Assembly: GCA_963770895.1 (NCBI GenBank)
Contig: CAVYRF010000001.1
Span: 2,008,712-2,072,711, forward strand
Length of the DNA stretch: 64,000 bases
Reading direction: 5' to 3'
Source of the DNA: an uncultured Acidobacteriota bacterium
Lineage (GTDB): Bacteria; Acidobacteriota; Thermoanaerobaculia; Multivoradales; UBA5704
In this document: positions 15,316 through 34,429 of the stretch, in pieces
How positions within the stretch are numbered: position 1 is the stretch's first letter
Layout of the letters: every line of letters begins with the position of its first letter
The notes under the pieces: model-generated
The model's input: the letters and a program-made list of their open reading frames with translations, nothing else
Database searches by the model: none
Told to the model about the DNA's origin: nothing
Translations under genes and position numbers: made by a program

Positions 15316-16068
15316 ATGAGCCCAAGCAGAGCACATGCAGGCATTCTTGCCGTACTCCTTGTCCTCACCCTGCCGGCCCTTCTGGCCGCGCAGACCATCC
15401 CCGCGGGAACCGATCTCTGGGCGACGCCGCGTGACGGCAATACCTCGTTCACGTTCCCCGCCGGCGACGTGGAGAGCTTGTGCGGCATGCCGCCCATCTC
15501 AAGCTGGAACCACACGGTCGCCCTGGGCGGCCCGGCCAACTCCGGCCCGGGGGGCGACACCGCGGTGGCGCGGCTCGACAACGCCACCTTCTCGGGCGGC
15601 AAGGCCACCACGCGTGTCCAGCTCGCCGCCCTGAACATGACCAACCTGGCGCCCCAGAACACGCCCTGCGGCCCCCTCAACTGGACGGTGGGGCTCTTCG
15701 GCAGTCAACCCATGACCATGATGACGATCACCCTGGGCAGCGGCTCCAGCGGCACCACGGGCAGCTCCACCGGCGGCACCTTCGCCGCCAACCTGCAGCT
15801 GAGCGCCAGGCTGGACGCCACCAACGCCGCTACCGGCTCGCCGGTCGGCAGCCTGTTCTACACGGTGACCCTGCCGGACCCGGGCGGCACCGCCTGGTCG
15901 CTCAGCTCGACGGGCCAGTTCCGGGCCGGCATGGATTCCAGCAACAACTGCCTTGAAACGCTGCGCGGCGAACAGAACACGACCGGCGGATCGGGTGAGC
16001 ACGCCTACTGCATCGCCGATGCGATCTCGCAGGGCAACTGCAACCTGCCCTGCCTGACGCAGAATTGA
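15316..16068 (+). CDS. Secreted hypothetical protein (250 aa), Ser/Thr/Gly-rich with several Cys
   Basis: ATG 15316 is preceded by GGAGG (15307-15311). The N-terminus AHAGILAVLLVLTLPALLAAQ looks like a signal peptide. No family was recognised. The ORF-track start (GTG 15289) is 9 codons upstream. Confidence 0.75.
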   Translation: MSPSRAHAGILAVLLVLTLPALLAAQTIPAGTDLWATPRDGNTSFTFPAGDVESLCGMPPISSWNHTVALGGPANSGPGGDTAVARLDNATFSGGKATTRVQLAALNMTNLAPQNTPCGPLNWTVGLFGSQPMTMMTITLGSGSSGTTGSSTGGTFAANLQLSARLDATNAATGSPVGSLFYTVTLPDPGGTAWSLSSTGQFRAGMDSSNNCLETLRGEQNTTGGSGEHAYCIADAISQGNCNLPCLTQN

Positions 16069-18659
16069 AGCCCCAACGCGGCCGGGCGGCGGCATCGCCG
16101 CCCGCGCCACCGTCGCTCCCGTGGGCCCTGTGGCTGGCGCAGGCCTCCGCCGCCCATCCCCGTCTGGCCCTGGGCCTGATGCTGGCGCTGGTGTCGGCCA
16201 TGGCGCCCGGCCTCTGGCGCATCCAGCTGCGCACCGACGGCCATTCGCTGGTGCCGCCGCACGATCCGGCGGTGACTGTCGACCGCCAGGCGCGGCAGGT
16301 TTTCGGCCTGCGTGACCCGCTGCTGGTGGCGATCGAAACCCCCACGCCCAACGGGATCTTCGACCCCCACACCCTGCAGCGCCTGCAGGCCCTGACCCAC
16401 GACCTGGCGGCGCTCCCCGGCATCGGCCCGGACCACGTGGTGAGCCTCGCCACGGAAAAGAGCCGGCGCTTTGCCGCCGACGGCTTCAACTTTCTGCCGC
16501 TGCTGGAGCCCTTGCCCTGGACGCCCGCCCGCCGCCGCCAGCTGCAGGAAGAGGTGCAGGCGGTCGACACCTTCCGCGGCACCCTGATTTCGTTCGACGG
16601 CCGAGCCGCGGCGGTGCTCGTCGGCGTGCCGGCGCCGGGACAGCTGGTAGACGGGCACGCCGTCGACCGCGTCCGCCTCTACCACCAGGTGGCCGCCATC
16701 GCACAACGGTACCAGCACGCGTCCGTGCGGCAAGCCGCAAACGATGCCGCGGCGCCACTTCCGGCCGCGGTCACCCCCGACCACCGTGCCCAGGGCTCCG
16801 CTCTGTCCGGCGGTGCCCAGGGCGGGACCACCGGCGATCGGCAACAGGGGGGCCAGGCGGCCAACCGCCCGGTGGGTGAGCGCATCTGGGTGGTGGGGGC
16901 GCCCGCCGCCGAAGCGCTGCTGGGTGAGCACGTGCTCGCCGACCTGGCCCTGCTGCTGCCGCTGGCCCTGATCACCATCGCCACCGTCCTGTGGGTGGCC
17001 TGCGGGCGCACCTGGGGCGCGGCGATCGGTCTGGCGAAGGTGGCCGGGGTGCAGGTCTTCACCCTGGGACTGATCGGCTGGAGCGGCCAGCCGGTCTACC
17101 TGACCACCGCCGTCATCCCGGTGTTGCTGACCACCGTCGGCCTGTCGGACGAGATCCACCTGCTGTGGCACTACCGCCACCGGCCGGCCGGGCAGCCGCC
17201 GGCGGTCGCCCTGGCGCGCGCGCTCCAGGACCGGGTGCCGCCGATCGTGCTGACCTCGCTCGCCACGGCGATCGGCTTCCTGTCGTTTCTGGCTTCGTCC
17301 ATTCCGGCGGTGTGGAGCTTCGGCCTCTTTGCCGGGATCGGCGTGCTGTTCTGCATCCTGTGGGCGCTGGTGGCGACGCCGGCGCTGATGGCACTACGGC
17401 CGGACGCCATTCCGGCGGCCGGTCCCGCCGCCGCCGACCTGCGGCGGGTCCACGCGGCCCTGGCCCGCCTGGCGCAGCCGCGCACGGCGCTGCCGGCGCT
17501 GGCGATCGCCACCATCCTGCTGGTGGCCGGCATCCCGCGCCTGGTCGTTCAGGACGGCTGGATCGACAACTTCGCGCCCGACAGCCCGCTGCGCCGCGCG
17601 TCGGCACGCATCGACCAGCTCTTCGCCGGCACCCACCAGCTGCTCGCCGTGCTCACCTTCGACCCGCCCGCCGCCCAGGTGCCGGCCGTCCCCGCCGCCC
17701 GCGGACCGCTCCTCGCCGGCTCGACGCTTGCCGCCGTCGGCCGCTTCGAACAGGCCCTGCGCGCCCAGCCCCAGGTCGGCGGCGTGCTGGGGCCGGCCGG
17801 CTACCTCACCACCACCGCCTACCTGTGGGCGGGGATGCGCCCGGAAAGCCGCGCGATCATCGACGATCCCGCCTGGATCTATCTCCATTTCTGCCGCATC
17901 GGCACGGTGCGCGGCATGGCGCGGCGGCGGGAGCTGATCGACGCCGGCTTCCGCCGCACCGTCGTCACCCTGCTGCTCAAGCGCGCCAACTACCAGGAGA
18001 CCGCGGCGCTCATCGCCACCATCCGCCAGCTTGAAAAAACCCAGCTCGCCCCGGTCTACGGACGCGTCGACCTGGCCGGCGACGTCGCCGTGTCGCAGGC
18101 GATGATCCCGGCGATCGTCCACACCCAGCTCGCCTCGCTAGCCCTGGCCCTGGCCGGCAGCCTGGCCGTCGTCATGCTGATCTTCCGCTCCGCCAGGATG
18201 GGTCTAGCGGCGGTCGCGCCCACCGCGCTGGCCGTCGCCTGGACCTTCGGCCTGATGGGCTGGCTGGCAATCCCGCTCGGCGTCGCCACCTCGATCTTCT
18301 GCGCCGTGACCCTCGGCATCGGCGTCGACTTCGGCATCCACCTGTTCCACCAGCTGCGCCGCGCCCAAGCGGCGGGGGAGCCACAGCCAGGCGCGGCCGC
18401 CCTGGCCGCTGCAGGACCCGCCATCCTGATCGACGCCGCCGCGATCACCCTGGGCTTCGGCCTGCTGGCCTTTTCGCGCGTCCCCGCCAACAGCCGCTTC
18501 GGCTTGCTGGTGGCGGCCGGCCTGTCCAGCGCCTGCCTGCTCACCCTGGCCGGCGCCGGCGCCGGCCTCCTGTTGCGCGACCGCCGTTACCAGCCAGCAC
18601 CGCTTCCGGCGCCTCACCCGCCGCCGCTGGCCGATCGGGCGATCCCCGCCAAACCGTGA
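16065..18659 (+). CDS. MMPL/RND-superfamily exporter (HpnN-like), 864 aa
   Basis: The TTG start overlaps the upstream stop (TTGA). Two clusters of hydrophobic helices (e.g. IVLTSLATAIGFLSFLASSIP, GVATSIFCAVTLGIGVDFGIHLFH) are separated by large soluble loops, as is typical of MMPL/RND transporters. The start codon is uncertain. Confidence 0.85.
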   Translation: MKPQRGRAAASPPAPPSLPWALWLAQASAAHPRLALGLMLALVSAMAPGLWRIQLRTDGHSLVPPHDPAVTVDRQARQVFGLRDPLLVAIETPTPNGIFDPHTLQRLQALTHDLAALPGIGPDHVVSLATEKSRRFAADGFNFLPLLEPLPWTPARRRQLQEEVQAVDTFRGTLISFDGRAAAVLVGVPAPGQLVDGHAVDRVRLYHQVAAIAQRYQHASVRQAANDAAAPLPAAVTPDHRAQGSALSGGAQGGTTGDRQQGGQAANRPVGERIWVVGAPAAEALLGEHVLADLALLLPLALITIATVLWVACGRTWGAAIGLAKVAGVQVFTLGLIGWSGQPVYLTTAVIPVLLTTVGLSDEIHLLWHYRHRPAGQPPAVALARALQDRVPPIVLTSLATAIGFLSFLASSIPAVWSFGLFAGIGVLFCILWALVATPALMALRPDAIPAAGPAAADLRRVHAALARLAQPRTALPALAIATILLVAGIPRLVVQDGWIDNFAPDSPLRRASARIDQLFAGTHQLLAVLTFDPPAAQVPAVPAARGPLLAGSTLAAVGRFEQALRAQPQVGGVLGPAGYLTTTAYLWAGMRPESRAIIDDPAWIYLHFCRIGTVRGMARRRELIDAGFRRTVVTLLLKRANYQETAALIATIRQLEKTQLAPVYGRVDLAGDVAVSQAMIPAIVHTQLASLALALAGSLAVVMLIFRSARMGLAAVAPTALAVAWTFGLMGWLAIPLGVATSIFCAVTLGIGVDFGIHLFHQLRRAQAAGEPQPGAAALAAAGPAILIDAAAITLGFGLLAFSRVPANSRFGLLVAAGLSSACLLTLAGAGAGLLLRDRRYQPAPLPAPHPPPLADRAIPAKP

Positions 18660-21020: not shown

Positions 21021-21115
21021 GGCCGCTATGGGCTGGGCTGCAGCTTAAGGCGTCCCTGCGCCCACCCGATCTCCTTCGAGTCTCCTGCCTCGCGCGCACC
21101 GCGGCCCCCGTGCGC
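21021..21115 (+). repeat. Repeat R, copy B (truncated; first ~95 bp of part B)
   Basis: GGCCGCTATGGGCTGGGCTGCAGCTTAAGGCGTCCCTGCGCCCACCCGATCTCCTTCGAGTCTCCTGCCTCGCGCGCACCGCGGCCCCCGTGCGC matches the other copies, then diverges. Confidence 0.85.
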
Positions 21116-22904: not shown

Positions 22905-24146
22905 TTAGGACGTGCTGCGCTCTTCCGTGTCCTGGGCGGCGGCTTCAGTGCTCACCTGTGGCACCGGCTTCCATCGCTCGTCCAGCTGATCCCAGGAGAT
23001 CTCCCATACCGGCTCGCCCAGCCCACGACCAGCGATGTAAAGGCCGCTGTGGCCGGCGGCGACGGAAAGGCGGCGGTTGCCCGAGGAGATTTCGCCCAGC
23101 AGCACGCGGTTCAGCTGTTGGGCGGTATGGTCCCAGCAGTCCACGGCCAGTCCCTGAGAGGTCTCCACCACGAGATAGACGCGGTTACCCTGTGCGGTCA
23201 TGCCGCGTACCACCCGCACCGCCTGCGAGGCACCCAGCGCAGCGCGGTCGAGCTTGATCCCTTCGGCCTGCGCCCGCTTTTCCATTGCTTGCCACTCGTC
23301 CGCGGAGCGTTCAGCCCAGCGCACCTGGCCGCCGCCCACCGTCACCGACTCCTTGACAGCGCCGGCGGCTGAATACATCTTCAGCGCGTAGGCATTTTGC
23401 TGTGCTACCCAGATCGCACCGTCGCGGCCGGCTGTAAGCCGAGTGTCGCGTTCGGCCTTGGTTTTGAGGAACGAGCCGGGGGAAGGGAGATCCGTGCTTT
23501 TGTTCTGGTCAAAGCGCAGCGATGGCTGCACTGCCAGGGTTCGCCAGCCCTGATCGTCGAACTGCAAAAGCAACGGTGGCGTGTCCCAGGTCGGGTCCTT
23601 GAAGTTCGAGGATGCGCCGGCGTTCCGGTTGCTGTCGCGCGCCGGTACCACCGCCACGACAGGACCGCTTCTGGTATACGTCAGCGCCGAAATCATCCAG
23701 CCCGCCGCCGGCACTGGCCGGCGTTCGTTACCCCGCAACAGCGATAGATGGCCGTCCGGCGCACTTTCCAGGAGCCAAGCATCGCCGTCCGGGCTCATCG
23801 CCGCATCAGCCACCCAATCCACCGCCACTGCACCCCCGGCAGGCACCGCAGCATGCGCAACCACGATCTTGCCAGAAGGCAGGATCTGGTCGATCTGCAG
23901 GCGATCGCCATGCAGCAGAAAGACCCGCCCTTCGGTGTCCGCCTGCATGAACTGCAACGCCTGGTTGTTTTCAAGCGCCGGATCGCCACCGATCTTGACC
24001 GGCGCCACACGGTGAAACGAACCCGCGGCTCCCGAGTCCGTGGCTCCCACCGCGGGGAGGGCGATCAGCAGCAACCCGAACCCTATCCTTGTCCACCCAA
24101 TGGTGCTGTTCTGGCAGCGCACAGGACGATCGCTCTGTTTATTCAT
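22905..24146 (-). CDS. Secreted hypothetical protein, 413 aa (paralog of 32664-33815)
   Basis: ATG at 24146 gives MNKQSDRPVRCQNSTIGWTRIGFGLLLIALPAVGA (signal-like). The 52 codons upstream in the track ORF belong to a gene remnant. Shares blocks with the 383-aa paralog (AIWVAQQNAYALKMYS vs ALWSASQNSYRLQKLS). Confidence 0.8.
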   Translation of the reverse strand: MNKQSDRPVRCQNSTIGWTRIGFGLLLIALPAVGATDSGAAGSFHRVAPVKIGGDPALENNQALQFMQADTEGRVFLLHGDRLQIDQILPSGKIVVAHAAVPAGGAVAVDWVADAAMSPDGDAWLLESAPDGHLSLLRGNERRPVPAAGWMISALTYTRSGPVVAVVPARDSNRNAGASSNFKDPTWDTPPLLLQFDDQGWRTLAVQPSLRFDQNKSTDLPSPGSFLKTKAERDTRLTAGRDGAIWVAQQNAYALKMYSAAGAVKESVTVGGGQVRWAERSADEWQAMEKRAQAEGIKLDRAALGASQAVRVVRGMTAQGNRVYLVVETSQGLAVDCWDHTAQQLNRVLLGEISSGNRRLSVAAGHSGLYIAGRGLGEPVWEISWDQLDERWKPVPQVSTEAAAQDTEERSTS

Positions 24147-24156
24147 ATGGGGCCAG

Positions 24157-24308
24157 AGGCTAGGCCTAAAAGAGCGGCTTACCGTCCGCGGTTGCGTCCT
24201 GCACGGGCTTCCAATGCGCAACCGCCAGGGGTTTTCAACGGGAATCCGCCAAATCCCATCTGTTGCGAGCCGCCCACCAAGCCAGAGCTGATCCGGCGCC
24301 ACCGCGGC
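24157..24308 (-). pseudogene. 3'-terminal fragment of a third paralog of the 383/413-aa secreted protein family
   Basis: ~150 bp nearly identical to 32655-32805, the 3' end of the 32664-33815 gene. It encodes ...APDQLWLGGRLA[TA]DGIWRIPVE... and keeps the TAG stop (24166-24168). It has a 1-nt indel and no 5' part. Confidence 0.8.
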
Positions 24309-24436
24309 TCAGCCGCCCGGTTGTTCCCTATAGGTTGTGTTGCCGCAAGGCGCAAATTACGGACATGGCCTCGGCGAGCGGCTGTGCGCTCAGATCGTTG
24401 CGCTGGGGTGGGCCGCAGGCCGCAATATGTGCTGGG
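24301..24436 (+). repeat. Repeat R, copy C, left half (part A), separated from its right half by the transposon
   Basis: Matches 33931-34070 of the uninterrupted copy, up to and including CTGGG (24432-24436). Confidence 0.9.
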
Positions 24437-24597: not shown

Positions 24598-25242
24598 TTG
24601 ACGCCACCCCCGGAGGGCTTGTCTGCTTTCGTTGTCGACGCGAAAGGAGACGATCCCTTGTACCAGACCTTGCTGCGAGATTCCAGCTTGTTCGAGCTAC
24701 TGCTGCGCTTCGACGCCGATCTGGCGGCAATGGTTCGCGAGGGCGGATGCGCCGTCTGCGGAGGGGCGCTGCACAGCGCTCGCTACCGGCGCAAGCCACG
24801 GGGCGGTCCCCTGGGGCTCGGGGCCGAGTACGCCTTGCGGCAGAGCTTCTGCTGCGCCACCGAGGGCTGCCGGCGGCGAGCGACGCCACCGTCGGTACGG
24901 TTCCTCGGCCGCAAGGTGTTCTTCGGTCTCTGGGTGCTGCTGCTGCCGGTGCTTCGGGAAGGGCCGACAGCCGAGCGCCTGCACCGTCTGGAGGAGGTTT
25001 TTAGAGTGAGCCGGCGGACCCTGTTGCGCTGGCGGCGGTGGTGGCGCGAGGTCGTGCCACGGAGCCGATTCTGGCAGTCGCGGCGCGGCGACTGGGCTTC
25101 GCCAGTGCCGCCGGCGGCGCTACCGAGCTCCCTGCTGGCCGGGTTCGAGCACCTTGCCGGGATCGCCGAGCAGGCGTTGTCGGCGCTGCGCTGGCTGGCG
25201 CCGCTCGGCGCCACCGGCAGCTTCTTGGATCACGCTCGGTGA
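24598..25242 (+). CDS. Transposon ORF1: Cys-rich (zinc-ribbon-like) hypothetical protein
   Basis: Contains CAVCGG...FCCATEGC cysteine clusters. The TTG at 24658, preceded by AAAGGAGA, is a more convincing start than TTG 24598. No family was recognised. Confidence 0.6.
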   Translation: MTPPPEGLSAFVVDAKGDDPLYQTLLRDSSLFELLLRFDADLAAMVREGGCAVCGGALHSARYRRKPRGGPLGLGAEYALRQSFCCATEGCRRRATPPSVRFLGRKVFFGLWVLLLPVLREGPTAERLHRLEEVFRVSRRTLLRWRRWWREVVPRSRFWQSRRGDWASPVPPAALPSSLLAGFEHLAGIAEQALSALRWLAPLGATGSFLDHAR

Positions 25243-25350: not shown

Positions 25351-26805
25351 ATGCCGCACGAGCACGAGGTGCGCTCTCACGAGCGCTGGGCGCATCTGCG
25401 CTTTGCTGTTGTCGGGCCGCTGCTGGCCTCGCCGCCGGCAGCCGGCGAGCTCCAGACGGAGCTGTCCCGTCTGGCGTCGAGACTCTGGCAGCATCCGGTC
25501 TCCGGTCAGCCGGTGCGCTTTGCCGTCTCGACGATCGAGCGCTGGTACTACCAGGCCCGACACGGCAACGACCCGGTGGCCGTCTTGCGCCGCAAGATCC
25601 GCAGCGACAGCGGCCAGCAGCAGGCCCTCAGCGCTGAGCTCGGAGAGGCGCTGCGACGCCAGCATGCAGCCCATCCGAGCTGGAGCTACCAGCTGCACCT
25701 CGACAATCTGGCCGTCCTGGTCGCCGAGCAGTCGAACTGGGGTCCACTGCCGTCCTACGCCAGCCTGCGGCGCTACATGGTGGTGCATGGCTGGCTGCGA
25801 CGCCGGCGAGTGCCGCGTGGCCAGCGCCCGGGAGAGCGCCTGGCCGAAGAGCGCCGAGAGGCGCGCGAGACGCGCAGCTACGAGGCTGAGTACGTCGGCG
25901 GCCTCTGGCATCTGGACTTCCATCACGGATCGCTGAAGATCCTCAATGCGCAGGGCGAGTGGGTGCAGCCGGTGCTGCTGGCGATCCTCGACGATCGATC
26001 GCGACTGCTCTGCCACGCCCAGTGGTATCTGAGCGAAACCGCCGCGAGTCTGGTGCACGGCCTGGTGCAGGCCTTTCAAAAGCGCGGTCTGCCGCGGGCG
26101 CTGCTGACCGACAACGGCGGCCCGATGCTTGCGGCCGAAACCACCCAAGGTCTACAACGCCTCGCCGTCGTCCACTCCACCACGCTCTCGTACTCCCCGC
26201 ATCAGAACGGCAAGCAAGAGGTGTTCTGGGTGCAGGTCGAAGGCCGGCTGCTGGCCATGCTCGAAGATCAGCCTGACCTGACGCTGGGCCTGCTCAACGA
26301 GGCCACGCTCGCCTGGGTGGAGATGGAGTACCAGCGGACCCGGCACTCCGAGACCGGCCAGGCCCCGCTGACGCGCTGGCTCGATGGCCCCACGGTGATC
26401 CGTCCTTGTCCAGAGACCAACGACCTCCGCTTCGCCTTCACCGCTGCGGCCGAACGCACTCAGCGTCAGAGCGACGGCACCCTCAGCCTCGACGGCACCC
26501 GCTTCGAGGTCCCCGGCCGCTTTCGCCACCTGCGGCGGCTGGCGCTACGGTATGCGAGCTGGGATCTGCGCTCGGTCTGGCTCGTCGACCCACGCACCGG
26601 CGTCGCTCTCGAGCGGCTCTATCCTCTCGACCGCACCCGAAACTCCGAGGGCGTAAGACGCCCGCTCGCACCGCCGTCGCTACCGACCGCGGAGATCACT
26701 GCCCAGCCCGGCGGCATCGCGCCGCTGCTGCGCCAGCTCATGGCCGACTACGCCGCCACCGGCCTGCCTCCCGCTTACATCGCCTACGACGAGGAGCACA
26801 CATGA
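25351..26805 (+). CDS. DDE transposase, rve/Mu-A/TniA type, 484 aa
   Basis: The catalytic triad is readable: WHLDFH, LLTDNGG, then NGKQE with exactly 35 residues between the second D and the E. N-terminal HTH-like region. C-terminal Mu-transposase-like beta domain (LSLDGTRFEVP). Confidence 0.92.
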   Translation: MPHEHEVRSHERWAHLRFAVVGPLLASPPAAGELQTELSRLASRLWQHPVSGQPVRFAVSTIERWYYQARHGNDPVAVLRRKIRSDSGQQQALSAELGEALRRQHAAHPSWSYQLHLDNLAVLVAEQSNWGPLPSYASLRRYMVVHGWLRRRRVPRGQRPGERLAEERREARETRSYEAEYVGGLWHLDFHHGSLKILNAQGEWVQPVLLAILDDRSRLLCHAQWYLSETAASLVHGLVQAFQKRGLPRALLTDNGGPMLAAETTQGLQRLAVVHSTTLSYSPHQNGKQEVFWVQVEGRLLAMLEDQPDLTLGLLNEATLAWVEMEYQRTRHSETGQAPLTRWLDGPTVIRPCPETNDLRFAFTAAAERTQRQSDGTLSLDGTRFEVPGRFRHLRRLALRYASWDLRSVWLVDPRTGVALERLYPLDRTRNSEGVRRPLAPPSLPTAEITAQPGGIAPLLRQLMADYAATGLPPAYIAYDEEHT

Positions 26806-27662
26806 TGACCCGCAACCTGCTGGCCCTATTCGGCGTCAAGTGGAATCCGTTCTCACCCGACATTCCGATCGAGGCGCTTTGGCGCACCCCCAAGATCGAG
26901 CACTTCTGCTGGCGGCTCGAAAACCTGGCGCGCGAGGGCGGCTTCGCCCTGATCACCGGCGATCCCGGAACGGGCAAGTCCGTCGCCCTCCGCGCTCTCG
27001 CCCACCATCTCGCCGCGCTGCCCGACGTCACCATCGGTGTCCTCAGCCGGCCGCAGAGCGCTCTCGGTGACTTCTACCGCGAGATGGGACAGCTCTTCGG
27101 CCTCGCGCTCTCTCCCCACAACCGCTGGGGCGGCTTCAAGATCCTCCGGGAAAGCTGGCTTGCCCACGTCGAAGCCACCCGCTGCCGCCCCGTGCTGCTC
27201 GTCGACGAAGCTCAGGAGATGCCCGCTGCCGTCCTCGCCGAAATCCGCATCCTTGCCGCCACCGAGTTTGATTCGCGCTCGATCCTCACCGTCGTGCTCT
27301 GCGGCGACAGCCGCCTAACGCAACAATTCCGCAGTGATGAGCTGCTGCCCATCGCCAGCCGCATCCGCGCTCGCTTGACGCTCGACTATCTCACTCCCAA
27401 GGAGCTGCTCGATTGGCTCCAGCACGCCCTCGCCCAGGCCGGCAATCCCCAGCTGCTCACCTCCGAGGTCAAGACCACCTTGGCCGAACACGCGGCCGGC
27501 AACCTGCGCGTCCTCACCACCCTGGGCAATGAGCTGCTCGCACTCGCCGCTCACCGACAGCTCGCCCAGATCGATCAAAAACTCTATCTCGAAGTCTTCG
27601 CCTCGCAACCCCGACCCAAACTCAAAGCCCAAACCCCAGGCAGCAAGCACCCTCGCGCCTGA
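26802..27662 (+). CDS. AAA+ ATPase transposition helper (TniB/MuB/ExeA-like), 286 aa
   Basis: Walker A GDPGTGKS and Walker B LLVDEAQE. The ATG overlaps the transposase stop (ATGA). Confidence 0.9.
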   Translation: MMTRNLLALFGVKWNPFSPDIPIEALWRTPKIEHFCWRLENLAREGGFALITGDPGTGKSVALRALAHHLAALPDVTIGVLSRPQSALGDFYREMGQLFGLALSPHNRWGGFKILRESWLAHVEATRCRPVLLVDEAQEMPAAVLAEIRILAATEFDSRSILTVVLCGDSRLTQQFRSDELLPIASRIRARLTLDYLTPKELLDWLQHALAQAGNPQLLTSEVKTTLAEHAAGNLRVLTTLGNELLALAAHRQLAQIDQKLYLEVFASQPRPKLKAQTPGSKHPRA

Positions 27663-28086: not shown

Positions 28087-28375
28087 CTGGGCCGCAGCTT
28101 AAGGCGTCCCTGCGCCCGCCCGATCTCCTTCGAGTTTCTTGCCTCGCGCGCACCGCGGCCCCCGTGCGCTTCGCACCCCTGCCGATAGCGGCCACTCCAT
28201 CCATCTGCCCTACCAGGGGAATTTGCCCACTCGACCGCGCACTCGCCAAACCCTGAGCCCGCGGTGCGCGCTCGCGCAACAGCCACCCCTTCGGACACGA
28301 ACCGGACCGGTTTGCTCCTCCTCACCCTACCCCTGGCGCTGGCCTCCCCGCCAGAACGTCACCGGCGTCGCCGAC
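28087..28375 (+). repeat. Repeat R, copy C, right half (part B)
   Basis: Starts with the duplicated CTGGG. Collinear with 18700-18977 and 34066-34365. Inverted pair at 28146-28158 / 28259-28271. Confidence 0.9.
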
Positions 28376-28655
28376 CAGACAGGAACCAGTTGCCACGCGG
28401 CAGGCTGCGCCCCCGCTACCTGCCTGCCGTAGCCCCCGCTAGCCCGGATCAGATATCCGCAAAATGGAAACTTCTTGGCAAAACCGGGGCACTGCTGGGC
28501 ATTCCAGGTAACCGACATTGCGCAAGCAAAGTGTTGGCGTAAAATCACCGGCGCTGACAGCGACAACGAATGTTTCCTCGAACGGCGACAGCCCCGCATG
28601 GGCGACCCAAAAATCTTCTGATGGTGACCACAAACCCGATTGCCGAGGTGCCCTG

Positions 28656-30329
28656 ATGCCCAGGCCCGTTCCGTCGCCGCTCGCGATCGCCCTCACCTGG
28701 TTGCGCGAGCGCTCGGCCTGGACCCAGCGGGATCTCGCGTTGGCAGTCGGCGGGAGCTCGGTCAGTATCAGCAAGTACGAGAACGGTCAGCAGACGCTGA
28801 AACGTGAGCGGCTCGACCAGCTGGCAGCCGCCCTGGGCTACGGCCTTGCCGACGTCGATCTAGCGCTTCTCACCGTCACCGCGCTCGACCCCGCCGCCGC
28901 AGCTACGCCCCAGGCCACTCACCCCCAACTGACCAGCCGCCAACACGGGGTCAGGGTTCGGCTCACCAAGTACGAGAGGGGCCAACGGCCGCTGAAGCGT
29001 GAGCGGCTCGATCAGCTGGCAGCCACCCTGGGCCACGACCCTGCCGACGTCGATCTGGCGCTCCTCACCATAGCCGCGCTCGACCCTACCGCCGCGGCCG
29101 CGCCGCAGGCTCCACTGGAACATCCGGGCGCCATTCCCCCCCTGCTGGCCCGCCTCAGCCGCCGGGCCGGGGTCCGCTTTGCCATCGAAGCCGCCACTCT
29201 GGCCCAGTCATGCTGGCAGCCTCAGCTGGCCGCCCGTCGCATCGCCCAGGACCGAGCCCAGGCCGGCGACCTGTGGCAGCAGCTGGCGCGCGTCACCCCC
29301 GCGCAGCGCCGCCTCCTGGTCGAGCGCACCCTGGAGTTCCAAGGCTGGGCGCTCGCCGAGCGCCTGGCCGAGGAGAGCCGGCGTGCTGCGCCCAAGAACG
29401 CCGCTACCGCGCTGGAGCTGGCGCAGCTCGCCGTGGCGGCGGCCCGTCGCGCCGGCGGGTCCGACGCCTGGCTCAGCCGTCTGGAGGGCTACATCCGGGC
29501 GTTCCTGGCCAACGCCCTGCGTGTCCAGGGGAGCCTGTCCAGCGCCGGCGCCGAGTGGCAGACCGTCTGGCGCCTCTGGCACGCCGGCACCGCGGGCGAC
29601 CCCGCCGCCGTGCTACCGGAGTGGCGCCTGCTCGACCTGGAGGCTTCCCTGCGTCGCGATGCGCGCCAGTTTGCCGCCGCCCTGGACCTACTCGATCGCG
29701 CCGCCGCGGCGGCTCCCAGCTCCGCAGCGGGGCGTATCTTGGTGAATCGCGCTTCGACCCTGGAACAGGCGGGCGACCTTCGGGGCGCCGTGGCCACGTT
29801 GCGGCAAGCTGAACCTATCGTTAATGAGACGCGCGAGCCGCGTCTGCAATGGCTGCTTGCGTTCAATTTCAGCGTCAACCTCTGTCATCTCGGTGGCTTC
29901 GCCGAGGCGGCATTGCAGCTGCCCAAGCTGCGGCAGCTCACGCTCAACCTCGGCAATGACTTGGACCTGGTGCGCGTCGTTTGGTTGAGCGGTCGTGTTG
30001 CGGCCGGCATGGGCAGCAGGCAGGATGCATGCGTCGCCTTTGAGGAAGTGCGGGACCAGCTGGCGGCGCGCCGCGATGGCTTCGGCACCGCCATGGTATC
30101 GCTTGAGCTGGCAGTTCTCTACTTGGAAGACGGGCGTCTTGGCGAGGTGCGCCGCCTCGCCATGCAGATGAGCTGGATCCTCGCCGCCGAGGGATTGGAG
30201 CGCGAGGTCCTCGCCGGCCTGCAGCTCTTCTGCGAGGCGGCCCGCCGCGAGGCCGCCACGATCGAGCAAGCGCGCACGGTGCTGTGCCAGCTTGGCCCCG
30301 CACCCCATTTTGGCGCCGGTGCGCTGTGA
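28656..30329 (+). CDS. XRE-family HTH + TPR-like helical-repeat regulator, 557 aa (paralog 1)
   Basis: Cro/C1-type HTH (WTQRDLALAVGGSSVSISKYENG). An in-frame 65-codon partial duplication follows it. The long C-terminus of amphipathic helical repeats is shared with 31011-32528. ATG 28656 was chosen; the track start 28518 lies in low-GC, non-coding-looking sequence. Confidence 0.85.
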   Translation: MPRPVPSPLAIALTWLRERSAWTQRDLALAVGGSSVSISKYENGQQTLKRERLDQLAAALGYGLADVDLALLTVTALDPAAAATPQATHPQLTSRQHGVRVRLTKYERGQRPLKRERLDQLAATLGHDPADVDLALLTIAALDPTAAAAPQAPLEHPGAIPPLLARLSRRAGVRFAIEAATLAQSCWQPQLAARRIAQDRAQAGDLWQQLARVTPAQRRLLVERTLEFQGWALAERLAEESRRAAPKNAATALELAQLAVAAARRAGGSDAWLSRLEGYIRAFLANALRVQGSLSSAGAEWQTVWRLWHAGTAGDPAAVLPEWRLLDLEASLRRDARQFAAALDLLDRAAAAAPSSAAGRILVNRASTLEQAGDLRGAVATLRQAEPIVNETREPRLQWLLAFNFSVNLCHLGGFAEAALQLPKLRQLTLNLGNDLDLVRVVWLSGRVAAGMGSRQDACVAFEEVRDQLAARRDGFGTAMVSLELAVLYLEDGRLGEVRRLAMQMSWILAAEGLEREVLAGLQLFCEAARREAATIEQARTVLCQLGPAPHFGAGAL

Positions 30330-30402
30330 AGCACCCAGCCCGAGCGGCGGAGTTCACGTCTACTCTCACTGCTGACCCGCTGCAACAGGCGATACCGCCC
30401 GT

Positions 30403-30616
30403 TCAGTGCGGCGTAACTACGTTCGTGCAACGCCCATCAGGTGGCGGGCGGCGTGACCGCGTTGATGCAGCGCCCATCTGGATCCGCCGTGCAGGTTGCT
30501 TGCGGCTTAACCACGTTCGTGCAGAGGCCGTTCGGGTCTCCCGTGCAAGTTGCCTGCGGCTTAACCGCGCTCGTGCAGAGGCTGCTCGGGTCCATTCCGC
30601 AGGTGGCCTGCGGCCT
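30403..30616 (-). repeat. 54-bp tandem repeat (3 intact units plus 1 decayed unit) encoding the Cys-loop motif
   Basis: Units at 30455-30616 are in frame. A fourth unit (30403-30454) has an 11-nt deletion, which creates the TGA at 30437; read in the +1 frame it still encodes PDGRCTNVVTPH*. Confidence 0.8.
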
Positions 30617-30862
30617 CACCCGCGAGGGCGAGCGCCGCAGTGGCAGTTGGGCGCTGCTGGAGGGCCGCCCCGCCCACGGCCAAATTGCGCTCAGCCACCG
30701 GCCCAACTGGGCCACGACATCGACACCAGGGCCACCTGGGGAGCCAGGAAAGCTGAGGCCGGCAGCCGAAGTGGCTGCTACGGAGCTGGATACGTTCGTC
30801 CAACCTGCCACAGCAAGGACGGCGGCCGCGACGGCAATGCGACGGGGGATTCTTGGACGCAT
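30437..30862 (-). CDS. Candidate secreted repeat-peptide precursor, 141 aa (three 18-aa Cys-loop repeats)
   Basis: RBS GAAAGGA lies 7 nt before ATG 30862. Signal-like MRPRIPRRIAVAAAVLAVAG. The C-terminal repeats are RPQATCGMDPSSLCTSAV / KPQATCTGDPNGLCTNVV / KPQATCTADPDGRCINAV. Codon-position GC bias is weak and a shadow ORF exists on the + strand, so coding status is uncertain. Confidence 0.45.
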   Translation of the reverse strand: MRPRIPRRIAVAAAVLAVAGWTNVSSSVAATSAAGLSFPGSPGGPGVDVVAQLGRWLSAIWPWAGRPSSSAQLPLRRSPSRVRPQATCGMDPSSLCTSAVKPQATCTGDPNGLCTNVVKPQATCTADPDGRCINAVTPPAT

Positions 30863-31010
30863 AGGGAAGTCCTTTCGTGGGGCGCTGCCGCTCGCGGCCG
30901 GAATTGGCCGGGGGCGGCCCGCGTCCCTGACAATCCGCTGCCGGTACGATTGTCGAGGTTAAAAATATACTTTTTCCGAGTACGGTATTCACGCGGGGAG
31001 GATTGCACGC

Positions 31011-32528
31011 ATGGCATCGCCAGGGCTTGACGACCAAGGGTTGCTTCTCCAGTGGCTGCGCGCAGTCCGGGGCTGGGACCAAAGCCAGCTTGGAGCGGCG
31101 GTCGGCATCTCGCAAGCCTCGATCTCTCGCTACGAGAAAGGAGAGGTGCCAGTACGGCCAGAAGCGCTGGAGCGCATCACCGCCGCCGTAGGACTGCCGG
31201 TCTGGTTCGTGAAGCGCTACTTGGTGCCCGTTTTTCGTGCCACCCGCAGTCTTTCGGCGACCGTGGCGACCAGCCCCTCATCGGGTGCCCACCCCCCGCT
31301 TGCCCAAGACCATAAACCCCTCGACGGGGGCGTCCTGGAGGCGGCTCTACGCGCGATGCTTGACGGGGCGCTGGCCGAGGTCGAGGCGGCGGCCATAGCT
31401 GCGGCAAACCAGAGAAGCACCCCCCGGCCCTTGCCGTCGCCGCGCGACCGCGAGGACGCCGCGCGCGCCTGGGACCGTCTGGCGCCCTGCGCCGCGGCTG
31501 ACCGCCAATGGCTGGTTGAGCGGTGCGCCGAGTTCCACCTGTGGGCGCTGGCCGAGCGGCTCTGTGACGAGAGCGCGCGAGCGGCGCCCCAAGAGGCGGC
31601 AGCAGCCCTCGACCTGGCCCGCCTCGCCCTTACCGTGGCGCAGCGCACCGGCGGTGCTGAGCCCTGGCGCCGGCGCTTGCAAGGTTACGCGCGGGCCTTC
31701 CTGGCCAACGTATTGCGCGTCACCGGTGAGCTGGTGGCGGCCGGAGCTGAATTCGCAAAGGCTTGGGAGCTGTGGCGCTCCAGCGGCGAGGGCGACCCCG
31801 CCGGCCTGCTGGAAGAGTGGCGCCTGCTCGACCTGGAAGCCTCCCTGCGGCGCGACGCCCGGCAATTCCACGACGCGCTCGATCTGTTGGAGCGCGCCGC
31901 GGCCGTAGCGCCGCCGCGCGCCCTTGGCGGCATCCTGCTCAACAAGGCGTCCACCCTGGAGCAGGCAGGCGACCCGGCGGGCGCTCTCGCCGTCCTGCGG
32001 CAGGCCGCGCCGCTGGTCGCGAGCAGCGACGCACCCCGCCTGCACTGGATATTGGACTTCAACCTGTGCGTCAACCTCTGCCATCTCCGCCAATTCGCCG
32101 AGGCCGAGGCACAGCTGCCGCGCCTCCGCCAGCTCGCCCTGGACCTGGGCAACGACCTGGACCTGGTGCGTGTCGTCTGGCTGAGCGGCCGCACGGCCGC
32201 GGGCTCCGGCCGCCGCGCCGAGGCGTGCGCCGCCTTCGAGCAGGTGCGCGGGGAGCTCACGATCAGGAAGGACGCCTTCGGCACCGCCATGGTCTCGCTG
32301 GAGCTGGCGCAGCTCTACCTGGACGAGGGCCGCACCGCCGAAGTGCGCGAGCTCGCCGCGGAAATGGCGTGGGTCCTTGCCGCCAAAGGCCTGGAGCGCG
32401 AAGCGTTGGCCGCCCTGCGCCTGTTCTGCGATGCCGCCCAGCGTGAGGCGGCGACCCTCGATCAGGTGCGGCGGGTGCTGGGCCAGCTGGAGCGCACCGC
32501 CGTCCTGCCGCGTCCCGCCGCTCTCTGA
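31011..32528 (+). CDS. XRE-family HTH + TPR-like helical-repeat regulator, 505 aa (paralog 2)
   Basis: ATG 31011 follows GGGGAGGA. HTH WDQSQLGAAVGISQASISRYEKG. The C-terminal repeats are collinear with paralog 1 (LLDLEASLRRDARQF, GNDLDLVRVVWLSGR, FGTAMVSLELA.LYL). Confidence 0.88.
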   Translation: MASPGLDDQGLLLQWLRAVRGWDQSQLGAAVGISQASISRYEKGEVPVRPEALERITAAVGLPVWFVKRYLVPVFRATRSLSATVATSPSSGAHPPLAQDHKPLDGGVLEAALRAMLDGALAEVEAAAIAAANQRSTPRPLPSPRDREDAARAWDRLAPCAAADRQWLVERCAEFHLWALAERLCDESARAAPQEAAAALDLARLALTVAQRTGGAEPWRRRLQGYARAFLANVLRVTGELVAAGAEFAKAWELWRSSGEGDPAGLLEEWRLLDLEASLRRDARQFHDALDLLERAAAVAPPRALGGILLNKASTLEQAGDPAGALAVLRQAAPLVASSDAPRLHWILDFNLCVNLCHLRQFAEAEAQLPRLRQLALDLGNDLDLVRVVWLSGRTAAGSGRRAEACAAFEQVRGELTIRKDAFGTAMVSLELAQLYLDEGRTAEVRELAAEMAWVLAAKGLEREALAALRLFCDAAQREAATLDQVRRVLGQLERTAVLPRPAAL

Positions 32529-32663
32529 CGGCCGCCGCCGGCCCGTTCTCTCCAGTTACAGGGGAGAGCACGACGGCCGTGGTGCGTGCGAAATCGGCCG
32601 CCCCCGTTCCGCCGGCGGCCCGCTCGCGGGCGATCGCCGGCGGGACGGGGGCAAAGGCTAGGC

Positions 32664-33815
32664 CTAGAAGAGCGGCTTACCGTCCGCGGTTGCGTCCTGC
32701 ACGGGCTTCCAATGCGCAACCGCCAGGGTTTCAACGGGAATCCGCCAAATCCCGTCTGCTGCGAGCCGTCCACCAAGCCAGAGCTGATCCGGCGCCAGCG
32801 CGGCCGACATGGGGCCGGATGAAACCGTCACTCCTTCGAGCAACACCCGCTCCAAAGTGTTCTGCGAAGGGTTGAAGCGGTCCAGGGCCATCCCTTCGGG
32901 GCTGGAAACCACCAGGTAGACATAACCATCCCGGCCGCAGACCAGAGCCCGTACGACCCCACGGGCAATCCCAGCAGGGGATTCGGGTGAGGCGGCGCGG
33001 TTCGCACCTTGCGCTGCGCGGTTCCGCCATTCCCGTTCCTGATCCTGCTTTCCAAGCTTCTGCCACTGCAGGTCACCGCTGCCAACCACGATTTCATGCT
33101 CGGGGGTCTCGGACGAAGAGGAGAGCTTCTGCAAGCGATAGCTGTTCTGCGAAGCGCTCCAGAGCGCCCCACCTTGGCCTGCGCACAGGAGCGTCTCCGT
33201 CTGCGCCCTACCTGCAGCCATCATCTCGAAGGCGCTTGCAGGCTTCTCTTTGAACTGGACAATTGGAGCCGAGACGACGGGCTGCCAGCGTCCATTCGTG
33301 AGAGCGAAAACCCGCGGGACCGTTTTCTTGAAACGATCTGCAGCGTCAGGGGGAGGCCCCAGCGATGTGACGCTGACCAGGGGACCAGAGGCTGAATAGG
33401 CCGCGGAAGAGATGACCCATCGAAGATCGGGAAAGCTCTCTTGCCTGCTGAAATCGCACACCGCCACTTCGCGGGGCGAACTCACGACCCAGGTCTGTCC
33501 TGCCGGATCCTTGGCGGCGGCATAGGCGGGAGCCAGCTGGTGGTCGCAAGCCAGCACACCCAGGCGATGGTCGAAACCTTCATCGGCTCCCAGGCCGAAA
33601 ACTTCAAAGGAATCTCCGCGCAGGAGCCAGGGCCGCCCTTGGACATCCGTGGCAAGAAACTGCGTCGTCTCGGCCTTTTCGAGGGCAGGCGCCGCGACCC
33701 GGAGCACTCGCACCCTGGCATACCCAGAAGCATCCTTTGGGGACTGTGGGAGGGCTGCCGCAGGGAGCACCAAGAATATGAAAAAACTAGCGCTTACGAT
33801 TCGCATACGTGTCAC
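32664..33815 (-). CDS. Secreted hypothetical protein, 383 aa (paralog of 22905-24146)
   Basis: GTG 33815 is preceded by GAGG (an alternative ATG is at 33806). Signal-like MRIVSASFFIFLVLPAAALPQ. The C-terminus LAPDQLWLGGRLAADGIWRIPVE is duplicated at 24157-24308. Confidence 0.82.
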   Translation of the reverse strand: MTRMRIVSASFFIFLVLPAAALPQSPKDASGYARVRVLRVAAPALEKAETTQFLATDVQGRPWLLRGDSFEVFGLGADEGFDHRLGVLACDHQLAPAYAAAKDPAGQTWVVSSPREVAVCDFSRQESFPDLRWVISSAAYSASGPLVSVTSLGPPPDAADRFKKTVPRVFALTNGRWQPVVSAPIVQFKEKPASAFEMMAAGRAQTETLLCAGQGGALWSASQNSYRLQKLSSSSETPEHEIVVGSGDLQWQKLGKQDQEREWRNRAAQGANRAASPESPAGIARGVVRALVCGRDGYVYLVVSSPEGMALDRFNPSQNTLERVLLEGVTVSSGPMSAALAPDQLWLGGRLAADGIWRIPVETLAVAHWKPVQDATADGKPLF

Positions 33816-33930
33816 CTTGCCTCATGCCTATTTTTGGATCTCCTATCGAAAGAGGTGCGGGTAGTCCCTGGGGCCAATGCTGCCGGCGCTATCAGTCACG
33901 AAGCCGTGAAGTCATGGCTTCGCGCCGCAC

Positions 33931-34365
33931 ACCGCGACCCGGCCGCCCGGTTGTTCCCTATATGCAGTGTTGCCGCAAGGCGCAAATTACGGACAGGGGC
34001 GGCTCGCGGCGAGTGGCTGTGTGCTCAGATCGTTGCGCTGGGTGGGCCGCAGGCCGCAATATGTGCTGGGCTGCAGGTTAAGGCGTTCCAGGCGCCCACC
34101 CGATCTCCTTCGAATCTCTTGCCTCGCGCGCACCGCGGCCCCCGTGCGCTTCGCACCCCTGCCGATAGCGCCCGCTCCAGCCATCTGCCGCACCAGGGGA
34201 ATTTGCCCACTCGACCGCGCACTCGCCAAACCCTGAGCCCGCGGTGCGCGCTCGGGCGACAGCCAGCCCTGCGGACATGAACCAGACCGGCTTGCTCCTC
34301 CTCGCGCTACCCCTGCCGCTGGCCCCCCGGCCAGAACTTGACCGCCGGCGCCGATCCGATTGCCG
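33931..34365 (+). repeat. Repeat R, copy E (only uninterrupted full copy: part A + part B)
   Basis: 33931-34070 matches 24301-24436 and 34066-34365 matches 28087-28375. Inverted pair at 34126-34138 / 34239-34251. Confidence 0.9.
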
Positions 34366-34429
34366 CCCGTCGCCGCGTGCGCGCGACGACGGGCGGAATC
34401 ACTCGGCCAACGGCGGCGGCGCCGGCGGC

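Follow-up and report, generated by a model that had tools for sequence, protein, structure and literature searches.

The locus described here raises the question of why a small gene for an apparently secreted repeat protein should lie between two related regulator genes, and whether the three genes form a unit. The window that was analyzed is a stretch of 64,000 nucleotides (nt) from an uncultured Acidobacteriota bacterium (contig CAVYRF010000001.1). Within it, two genes for XRE-type helix-turn-helix (HTH) regulators whose C-termini resemble tetratricopeptide repeats (TPR), denoted reg1 and reg2, flank a gene for a protein of 141 amino acids (aa) on the opposite strand. A sequence-only reading of the window had suggested that this may be a peptide-sensing circuit similar to the RRNPP quorum-sensing systems. 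We demonstrate that the trio is a conserved module in Acidobacteriota and that the small gene belongs to a large family of repeat-containing precursors. The trio may be an autonomous RRNPP-like peptide-sensing cassette of the Thermoanaerobaculia/Holophagae; this is the reading that we favor, and its probability is judged to fall slightly short of even.

Reg1 (28656-30329, + strand, 557 aa) is a full-length XRE-HTH protein with approximately nine TPR-like helix pairs and is convergent with the peptide gene. Reg2 (31011-32528, + strand, 505 aa) has the same domain order, again with approximately nine pairs, and is divergent from the peptide gene. The two proteins are paralogs with 54% identity over 461 aa (E = 5e-134). 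Alignment, Pfam and AlphaFold2 (AF2) modeling all bear out the shared HTH domain, the shared TPR-like C-terminus and the three motifs that had been quoted from both proteins. The HTH domain spans residues ~9-68 in each and exceeds the Pfam cutoff (HTH_3 at 48.9 bits against a cutoff of 23 for reg1, and HTH_31 at 45.5 bits against a cutoff of 27 for reg2), and the matches to TPR_12 are sub-threshold in both (E values of 1e-4 to 3e-6). The NCBIfam search of reg1 and reg2 returned generic HTH similarity and nothing further. Among the 63 members of the regulator family, HTH_3 or HTH_31 is above the cutoff in all 63, and TPR_12 is matched at E ≤ 0.1 in 52, with a best E of 4e-14. The homologs carry public names such as "helix-turn-helix transcriptional regulator" or "tetratricopeptide repeat protein". 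The AF2 model of reg2, built from 63 homologs, has a mean predicted local distance difference test score (pLDDT) of 90.4. It consists of a five-helix HTH domain, two long helices with disordered linkers between them, and 18 further helices between residues 146 and 497 that make up the approximately nine TPR-like pairs. No transmembrane-like segment was seen in a scan of reg1 and reg2, which identifies both as predicted cytoplasmic proteins.

The orthologs of reg1 and reg2 in locus L001 are P0017 and P0004, respectively, each with 64% identity. Comparison with P0017 places the start of reg1 at the ATG at 28656 rather than at the TTG at 28518, which would give a protein of 603 aa. Reg1 also contains an in-frame tandem duplication of 195 nt (28751-29110, + strand), detected by repeat search and as a second Pfam HTH stretch. 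The two copies (28751-28915 and 28946-29110) are 81% identical and repeat the second half of the HTH domain together with the linker; P0017 lacks this duplication.

The small gene (30437-30862, − strand) encodes a predicted pre-pro-peptide composed of a signal peptide, a Trp-rich helix, a Pro/Arg linker and three Cys-loop units. The predicted Sec-type signal peptide (30773-30862, − strand; approximately aa 1-30) reads MRPRIPRR, then AVAAAVLAVAG, then a c-region of small residues. The call comes from a heuristic feature scan and agrees with an AF2 helix at residues 7-23, and in this respect the sequence-only reading was correct. The amphipathic Trp-rich helix (30683-30724, − strand; aa 47-60), VDVVAQLGRWLSAI, is conserved, is helical in the AF2 model and runs on into WPW; W54 and L57 are near-invariant in peptide alignment A3. 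The three Cys-loop cores (30467-30601, − strand) lie in 18-aa units that correspond to a 54-nt tandem repeat (Tandem Repeats Finder period 54). The motif scan located them at C88-C96 (CGMDPSSLC, 30575-30601), C106-C114 (CTGDPNGLC, 30521-30547) and C124-C132 (CTADPDGRC, 30467-30493), all on the − strand. The earlier count of three repeats of 18 aa is thus upheld by the tandem repeat, with the amendment that the first is degenerate and has DPSS in place of DPxG. The residues C88, D91, P92, C106, P110, G112 and C114 are invariant in the peptide alignment. Three-frame translation revealed an out-of-frame remnant of a fourth half-repeat, PPDGRCTNVVTPH*, at 30403-30446 (− strand), which overlaps and follows the stop codon and includes a copy of DNA repeat family D1 (30408-30441). 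This remnant suggests that the 3′ end of the peptide gene has recently gained or lost a repeat or has undergone a frameshift.

In DNA of high GC content a small open reading frame (ORF) may be a chance frame, and the two regulators would then be tandem duplicates with nothing of interest between them. The contrast in GC content across codon positions is weak (0.63/0.69/0.74), and three other ORFs of 173-248 aa overlap the small one, as this artifact would allow. It is contradicted by the orthologs, which differ from the window gene by indels in multiples of three and show a ratio of nonsynonymous to synonymous substitution rates of 0.54 (window versus L001). It is also contradicted by the frame-specific motif in 79 loci, by a family of at least 2,141 clusters and by conserved spacing to the ribosome-binding site (RBS). 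In the window an AAGGA lies 6 nt (11 nt from center to start) ahead of the ATG, and an RBS at the proper distance is conserved for the peptide genes. The artifact is refuted, with a residual probability near nil. By sequence comparison the 141-aa ORF is a real gene with its own RBS, as had been claimed.

A word-index search of 5.8 billion proteins returned a single homolog of the 141-aa ORF, P0001 (137 aa, 51% identity, E = 5e-27). P0001 is encoded between P0004 and P0017 in the same orientation as in the window, and the genes that flank this trio are wholly different. A third orthologous trio, including the ortholog of the small gene, was found in L081. The window, L001 and L081 share a divergent peptide sub-type, PQATC(G/T)xDPxGxC, that is akin to the cores in L002. 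The impression of a rare orphan gene left by the single-sequence search was wrong. The word-index search misses this fast-evolving family, and a six-frame motif scan and a profile search were needed to recover it.

A scan with the regulator profile of one genome per GTDB species identified 79 loci, all from Thermoanaerobaculia, Holophagales or unclassified Acidobacteriota metagenome-assembled genomes (MAGs). The description of the host as an Acidobacteria-like organism agrees with its Thermoanaerobaculia relatives. Locus L044 comes from a Thermoanaerobaculum sp. MAG, and a species of this genus, Thermoanaerobaculum aquaticum, is in culture. At most loci there are two same-strand paralogs 400-630 nt apart, and the gap between them nearly always encodes a protein of approximately 100 aa on the opposite strand. 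Motif clusters, defined as two or more [CP]xxDPxG motifs in one frame over a span of up to 200 nt, were sought in six frames over 81 sources (812 kb). The scan returned 80 clusters in 73 of the 81 sources; 79 of them lie on the strand opposite to the regulators, directly past a regulator stop codon, and only one spurious cluster was found in the six frames of 812 kb. The sequence-only reading had named conservation of the small ORF beside orthologous regulators as its own test, and the ORF was found there in the 79 regulator-first loci and in four of four peptide-first look-ups on long contigs. In these four look-ups the peptide gene has a convergent HTH/TPR gene of 487-529 aa and a divergent HTH gene of 141-501 aa in every case.

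The convergent HTH-TPR gene is next to the peptide gene within the thresholds at 77 of the 79 loci and just outside them at the other two, and it is full length at 71. Its typical length is 486-505 aa, and its TPR domain has a near-invariant surface made up of LLDLEASLRRD, N233 and R236. The distance between the stop codons of the peptide gene and the convergent regulator ranges from −23 to +139 nt and is often a 4-nt overlap or a gap of 4-8 nt; in the window this spacer is 107 nt. A divergent second HTH gene is present at no fewer than 68 of the 79 loci and occurs in three length classes: full (~490 aa), medium (~260 aa; the HTH domain and approximately the first three repeats) and short (~130-150 aa; the HTH domain and linker helices). 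Tandem arrays of the form regulator-peptide-regulator-peptide also occur, in which the last unit has no divergent HTH gene. The best cross-locus match of a convergent-type regulator is another convergent-type regulator in 70 of 71 cases, and that of a divergent-type regulator is divergent-type in 51 of 62. Judged by these matches, the convergent (A) and divergent (B) regulators are separate lineages. The peptide gene is invariably partnered with the reg1 type, and many regulators of the reg2 type are truncated forms of 130-260 aa.

No gene family beyond the trio is conserved across the 81 loci; the next most common real family is present in 9. Genes for proteases, permeases or Dsb proteins were sought around the module in the same 81 loci and none is linked to it. 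Genomes can contain several modules: a single 5.8-Mb contig carries seven paralogs, and one MAG contributes up to four loci. Weak profile matches (to positions ~130-450) also revealed TPR-only relatives of the regulators that have no HTH domain, at several loci that include 4409-7861 of L001, 2902-4902 of L007 and 3384-4589 of L036 and L041. These relatives and separate small HTH proteins are often encoded nearby on the opposite strand, and they may represent regulators that have been split or that play an accessory part. Those in L001 adjoin a gene for a 203-aa protein that by eye resembles an extracytoplasmic function (ECF) sigma factor.

The precursors share a signal peptide (for example M..S.RRK..LLLL..LA.PWASAA), a Trp-rich amphipathic helix (L..W.FL...W) and two to four Cys-bracketed loops. 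From 199 cores the consensus was determined to be [DKE][EAT]-G-C-x1-[ILAM]-D-P-[NDS]-G-x-C, where x1 is the residue that follows the first Cys. The cores are conserved and the linkers between them are variable. The median precursor length is 101 aa (range ~69-141 for those with well-delimited starts), and the protein ends 1-4 residues past the last Cys in 66 of 79. The family-wide signal-peptide calls were made by the heuristic scan, which considers n-region charge, an h-region and an AxA-like site. The h-region and the AxA-like site were each found in 74 of 74 precursors and a net-positive n-region in 72, and the Trp-rich motif satisfies a strict regular expression in 51 of the 74. L003 and L004 have a single core. 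The cores in L058, L071, L074 and L079 are of the form GPGxDPxG and have neither Cys; the regulators at these loci are otherwise normal. Some lineages can therefore do without the disulfide.

A profile of 70 precursors matched at least 756 proteins among 90%-identity clusters; the source names are all "hypothetical protein", and the named organisms are Thermoanaerobaculia. A profile of 106 precursors matched at least 2,141 representatives of 50%-identity clusters at E ≤ 0.001, with 994 at E ≤ 1e-10. Nearly all of the matches are 90-150 aa in length. The only long protein among them is P0364, a metagenomic YD/RHS-repeat protein of 2,005 aa that was matched through an xIDPxGR turn. The likeness of the peptide core to the β-hairpin turn of YD/RHS repeats (xIDPxGRxT) extends over approximately 6 residues and may be convergent; YD repeats have no Cys brackets, and the small peptides lack the context of the YD shell. 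The shared IDPxGR turn suggests that the core forms a tight β-turn. No Pfam or NCBIfam model matches the peptide family, for which Pfam gave weak, sub-threshold similarities to the Defensin_5, Bacteriocin_II and conotoxin models.

The AF2 model of the window peptide (106 aligned sequences) has a mean pLDDT of 59.7, and its only helices are those of the signal peptide (residues 7-23) and the Trp-rich segment (residues 47-60). Since no folded domain is predicted, a processed pro-peptide fits the model better than a folded domain does. The signal features, the low-confidence fold, the conserved cores and the short C-terminus together look like those of such a pro-peptide, as would be expected for an RRNPP-like cassette. 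Peptide signaling through cytoplasmic HTH-TPR receptors has been described as a trait of the Gram-positive Bacillota, and quorum sensing in Gram-negative bacteria as based on small molecules (PMC10075063, PMC12700828, PMC12998947). The RRNPP signature has been given as a Sec-exported pro-peptide of 10-100 aa and a TPR receptor of 250-500 aa encoded as direct neighbors (Bernard et al. 2023, PMC10075063). Three of these five features, the TPR domain, adjacency and the Sec-type signal (by heuristic scan), are found in the module, and the two lengths are borderline. The precursor of the window is above the range at 141 aa, and about half of the family (median 101 aa) lies inside it. The receptors of the window measure 505 and 557 aa, the latter inflated by the duplication in reg1, and those of the convergent type 486-505 aa.

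The fold of reg2 was compared with structures in the PDB by using Foldseek. The best matches were complexes of LGN/Pins (E = 2e-5) and the RapJ-PhrC complex (4gyo; E = 4e-5, template modeling (TM) score of 0.66, root-mean-square deviation (rmsd) of 5.5 Å). These were followed by RapH, RapF, RapI and the phage phi3T Rap protein with its pheromone; PlcR-PapR-DNA was matched weakly. The best matches as a group have E values of 2e-5 to 1e-3, target-normalized TM scores of 0.56-0.68, sequence identities of 10-17% and rmsd values of 5.5-8 Å. The superhelices of LGN/Pins and Rap hold extended peptides in a concave channel. LGN differs from reg2 in being eukaryotic and without an HTH domain, and the Rap proteins are likewise without an HTH domain. 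The scaffold TPR domains of OGT and TTC7 are similarly close to the reg2 fold, and a Foldseek search of viral structures returned only generic TPR or HTH proteins. The sequence-only reading had asked whether the C-terminal domains model as peptide receptors or as generic TPR scaffolds. The answer is divided: they match peptide-binding superhelices that include RapJ-PhrC, yet LGN scores as well as Rap. The fold therefore indicates a peptide-binding type of TPR and not RRNPP as such.

The resemblance to the RRNPP/RRNPPA systems (Rap-Phr, NprR-NprX, PlcR-PapR, Rgg-SHP, PrgX-PrgQ and AimR-AimP) is one of architecture. Both have a receptor with an XRE HTH domain and a TPR superhelix, with an adjoining small gene for a Sec-exported pro-peptide whose candidate mature part is C-terminal. 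Both occur as stand-alone cassettes without conserved neighbors, in several diverged copies per genome. The peptide of the module, like those of the RRNPP systems, seems to vary in step with the TPR domain, and the structural matches of reg2 include Rap-peptide complexes. A convergent orientation of receptor and peptide genes is also found in some Rgg/SHP pairs and in prgX/prgQ. The approximately nine repeats of the module regulators recall the HTH-9TPR architectures described in PMC12700828. The module differs in that its host is a diderm acidobacterium rather than a member of the Bacillota. Its precursor has two to four tandem Cys-bracketed loops, where RRNPP precursors yield one linear unmodified peptide, and it includes a second, often truncated HTH paralog and a conserved GC-rich hairpin at the RBS of the peptide gene. 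Novelty lies in the phylum, in the peptide family with its multiple Cys-loop copies, in the pairing of A and B regulators and in the hairpin close to the RBS, whereas the logic of receptor and pro-peptide is already known.

The term RRNPP-like is thus apt for the TPR domain, the adjacency, the Sec-type signal and the likeness of the fold to Rap-Phr, and it does not extend to sequence kinship with PlcR, NprR, Rgg or AimR. Homology of the regulators to RRNPPA proteins at the level of sequence is unsupported by our profile comparisons. The host range likewise lies outside the Bacillota of RRNPPA, with all named relatives in the Thermoanaerobaculia, the Holophagales or unclassified Acidobacteriota. 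For these two reasons the module is set apart from membership in RRNPPA. It also differs from generic XRE HTH-TPR regulators (HTH_3/HTH_31 plus TPR_12), with which its homologs share the HTH domain and the public naming; that annotation misses the obligatory secreted repeat-peptide partner, the A/B paralogs and the conserved cis elements. A role in anti-phage defense was considered with PADLOC and rejected; the matches were to HTH domains only (RmrA and the N-terminal ~50 residues of capH), and there was none for the peptide.

The principal rival to an RRNPP-like cassette is that the Cys-loop protein is a regulated secreted effector, an output without feedback, and that the XRE-TPR pair senses some other ligand or protein. 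The effector could be antimicrobial or bacteriocin-like, a binder of metal or calcium, a surface or adhesion protein, or a periplasmic factor. Extracellular effectors typically have disulfide-stapled loops and are exported by Sec, and the weak Pfam similarities to Defensin_5, Bacteriocin_II and conotoxin, together with the resemblance of the core to the structural YD/RHS hairpin turn (IDPxGR), point in the same direction. An importer gene is not linked to the module in the loci examined, the envelope is diderm, and the TPR fold is equally near to the scaffold TPRs of LGN, OGT and TTC7. An effector would not, however, be expected from a module that has no linked immunity, export or maturation genes in 81 loci, that occurs in several diverged copies per genome, each with a dedicated regulator, and whose peptide has no folded domain in the AF2 model.

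The pattern of variation in the cores also argues against an effector. The residue x1 is identical in 63-64% of core pairs within a precursor and in 13-14% of those between loci, and the identity within a precursor stays at 0.64 (n = 55) when the linkers that flank the cores are dissimilar. This sameness is therefore more than the result of recent repeat duplication. For 69 convergent regulators, sharing of x1 is correlated with TPR identity (partial r = 0.20, permutation p < 0.0005) and not with HTH identity (partial r = −0.03, p = 0.83). For 28 full-length divergent regulators the corresponding values are 0.02 (p = 0.34) for the TPR domain and 0.14 (p = 0.02) for the HTH domain. These results suggest that x1 tracks the TPR domain of the convergent regulator. 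With these points on both sides, we consider the effector somewhat unlikely, and it is the alternative that deserves the most attention.

The peptide gene and reg2 are separated by a divergent intergenic region of 148 nt (30863-31010), with 61.5% GC against 71% for the window and a core of 43% GC. The convergent/divergent layout and the lower-GC spacer were therefore described correctly by the earlier reading. The region is also 148 nt in L001, with 71% identity; for comparison, the regulator genes of the two loci are 70-72% identical, the peptide genes 64%, and the outer flanks 47-58%. An A5-N5-T5 near-palindrome, AAAAATATACTTTTT, lies at 30961-30975, 36 nt ahead of the reg2 start, and is conserved in L001. 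Short palindromes occupy the same place before the start of the divergent regulator elsewhere, as in L053 (GACATAGCCTATGTC), L010 (GTGGATTAATCCAC) and L039 (GTGAACAAATTCAC). The palindrome sequence varies by sub-group, as expected of co-diverging operators, and we infer that it is a putative operator, promoter core or both. The region upstream of reg1 has no obvious copy of it.

A GC-rich hairpin, or inverted repeat, was found by folding at 30879-30927 (− strand), where it separates the peptide-gene RBS from the promoter region; its loop in the window is AAUUCC. Hairpins of at least 14 pairs are present in 54 of 74 peptide leaders, with loops that are mostly AUGGN, and at many loci the base of the stem pairs UUUCC with the Shine-Dalgarno GGGAG. 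In a consensus stem of 19 bp, 77% of the cells are paired compared with 35-53% in shifted controls, and double changes occur at 17 of the 19 pairs. RNAalifold on MAFFT alignments of the leaders gave a consensus structure only after outliers were removed and the penalty for non-canonical pairs was relaxed, and none before. The folding z-scores relative to shuffled leaders are modest, with a median of −1.1. The slight excess of G-U (86) over A-C (53) is compatible with both an mRNA structure and a DNA palindrome. Rfam has no match between 28000 and 33000. A scan for the sigma-70 consensus found 0 sites, and a terminator scan found no more candidates than in shuffled sequence; neither scan is informative for this phylum.

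Alternatively, the TPR regulator could bind the precursor before it is exported, for example through the Trp-rich helix. The level of precursor in the cytoplasm would then report the capacity for Sec export or periplasmic oxidation, with the exported product of secondary importance. Outside the cores no element is more conserved than the Trp-rich helix, which is predicted to be helical, and TPR grooves often bind helices or extended segments of partners, as in the LGN complexes that top the fold search. Such a sensor has no need for exit through the outer membrane and re-import, and a hairpin able to pair with the Shine-Dalgarno sequence suggests tight translational control of the precursor. 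It leaves the multiple cores, their pherotype-like variation and the short C-terminus after the last core unexplained, and the association of x1 with the TPR domain points to the cores instead. We know of no precedent for an XRE-TPR regulator that senses an unexported precursor, which also counts against this speculative proposal, and we regard it as improbable.

The small protein could also be the multi-core precursor of a ribosomally synthesized and post-translationally modified peptide (RiPP), modified by enzymes encoded elsewhere, with the HTH-TPR proteins as pathway regulators. The multi-core architecture and the recognition-like [DKE][EAT]G flank before each core are consistent with this, and the nonribosomal peptide synthetase (NRPS) gene at 52-15243 shows that the window has a capacity for secondary metabolism. 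That gene is more than 13 kb away and is absent from the orthologous loci, and over 81 loci the module is accompanied by no recurrent family of tailoring enzymes, proteases or transporters. A Sec signal peptide in place of a RiPP leader argues against cytoplasmic tailoring. We therefore regard a RiPP as very improbable.

For an RRNPP-like cassette, the biochemical steps that we infer from the architecture, conservation, exported-type N-terminus, fold and variation patterns are as follows. The precursor would be exported by Sec, with cleavage of the signal peptide, and its Cys pairs would be oxidized in the periplasm. Proteases would then cut at the conserved [DKE][EAT]G junctions to release several copies of one loop peptide of approximately 9 residues, the identity ("pherotype") of which would be set mainly by x1. 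The peptide would accumulate outside the cell, be taken up again, and bind to the convergent regulator inside the concave groove of its TPR superhelix. This regulator, acting with or against the divergent HTH protein at the intergenic palindrome, would switch transcription of the peptide gene and of distal targets.

Several considerations weigh against this proposal, which derives from sequences and structure models. The envelope is diderm, and a Sec-exported peptide would land in the periplasm; exit through the outer membrane and re-import are unexplained, and the module has neither a permease nor a protease gene linked to it at the 81 loci. A disulfide loop would not survive the reducing cytoplasm, and the four loci with Cys-less cores indicate that the loop is non-essential. 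The module precursors are longer than those of RRNPP systems (median 101 aa; 141 aa in the window), and their conserved Trp-rich helix has no counterpart there and no role in the proposed mechanism. A search of the 63-member regulator profile against PDB sequences returned, among the best 60 of 129 matches (E ≤ 10), HTH proteins and generic or designed TPRs and no RRNPP protein. The 25 Pfam families that the 63 members match most often include none specific to RRNPP. The Foldseek E values are modest, and eukaryotic LGN scores equal to or better than Rap. Shared ancestry confounds the co-variation of x1 with the TPR domain, as does the difference in length between the HTH and TPR segments.

It is possible but rather doubtful that the trio carries out peptide quorum sensing with an HTH-9TPR receptor; RRNPP-type systems would then be known for the first time from a diderm phylum outside the Bacillota. 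In that case, each precursor would deliver two to four disulfide-stapled nonapeptides of the form C-x-[IL]-D-P-x-G-x-C with the residue past the first Cys as the pherotype, and soil metagenomes would hold thousands of pherotypes. The HTH-TPR paradigm of peptide signaling would extend to a diderm soil phylum, which raises the transport question of how a Sec-exported peptide leaves and re-enters through two membranes. An outgroup would help to root the RRNPPA family (PMC12700828), and the module receptors would be either a deep outgroup of this kind or an independent, convergent invention. The literature that was searched holds no account of the module or of peptide quorum sensing in Acidobacteria. 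The workflow of the RRNPP detection tool was illustrated on genomes of Firmicutes and viruses (PMC10075063), which may explain why the family has gone unreported. Whatever the mechanism, a simple signature defines a large family of secreted peptides (at least 2,141 clusters at 50% identity), hundreds of "XRE/TPR" regulators gain a functional partner, and a conserved hairpin is placed at the RBS of the peptide gene. The core peptides are short enough to be synthesized, and the signaling hypothesis is directly testable.

The window as a whole is chromosomal in character, with an NRPS gene, an MMPL transporter gene, a nuo operon at 42-53 kb, and genes for RNase R/II and a MacB-type permease. The NRPS ORF (52-15243, + strand, 5,063 aa) contains condensation, adenylation and peptidyl carrier protein domains in the first 1,000 residues, which were scanned, and is followed by the MMPL/RND-type transporter gene at 16065-18659. 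The trio is embedded in a cluster of segmental repeats. The segments 28107-28397 and 34087-34377 are 88% identical, and a partial third copy at 21033-21115 is 95% identical to the copy at 28107-28397. A second repeat at 24149-24368 recurs at 32647-32804 and 33930-33998 with 90-95% identity. The genes at 22905-24302 and 32664-33815 (both − strand) lie within these repeats and encode paralogs of 465 and 383 aa, respectively, with signal-peptide-like N-termini; neither protein has a match in Pfam or NCBIfam. The sequence-only reading had proposed that the regulators control such neighboring secreted-protein cassettes. We rejected this as unsupported: conservation across loci stops at the trio, the orthologous loci have other flanks and lack the two genes, and these genes are part of the local segmental repeat.

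The direct repeats bracket the trio and the gene for the 383-aa protein, and the region looks rearranged, with remnants of a duplicated secreted-protein gene. The C-terminal motif APDQLWLGGRLA.DGIWRIPVE of the protein encoded at 32664-33815 recurs in the upstream extension of the 22905-24302 frame, which indicates a broken tandem array. Between the repeat copies upstream of reg1 there is a pair of genes for an rve-family transposase and an AAA_22 ATPase (25351-26805 and 26406-27662) that is IS21- or Tn-like, and an ORF of 214 aa is found at 24598-25242.

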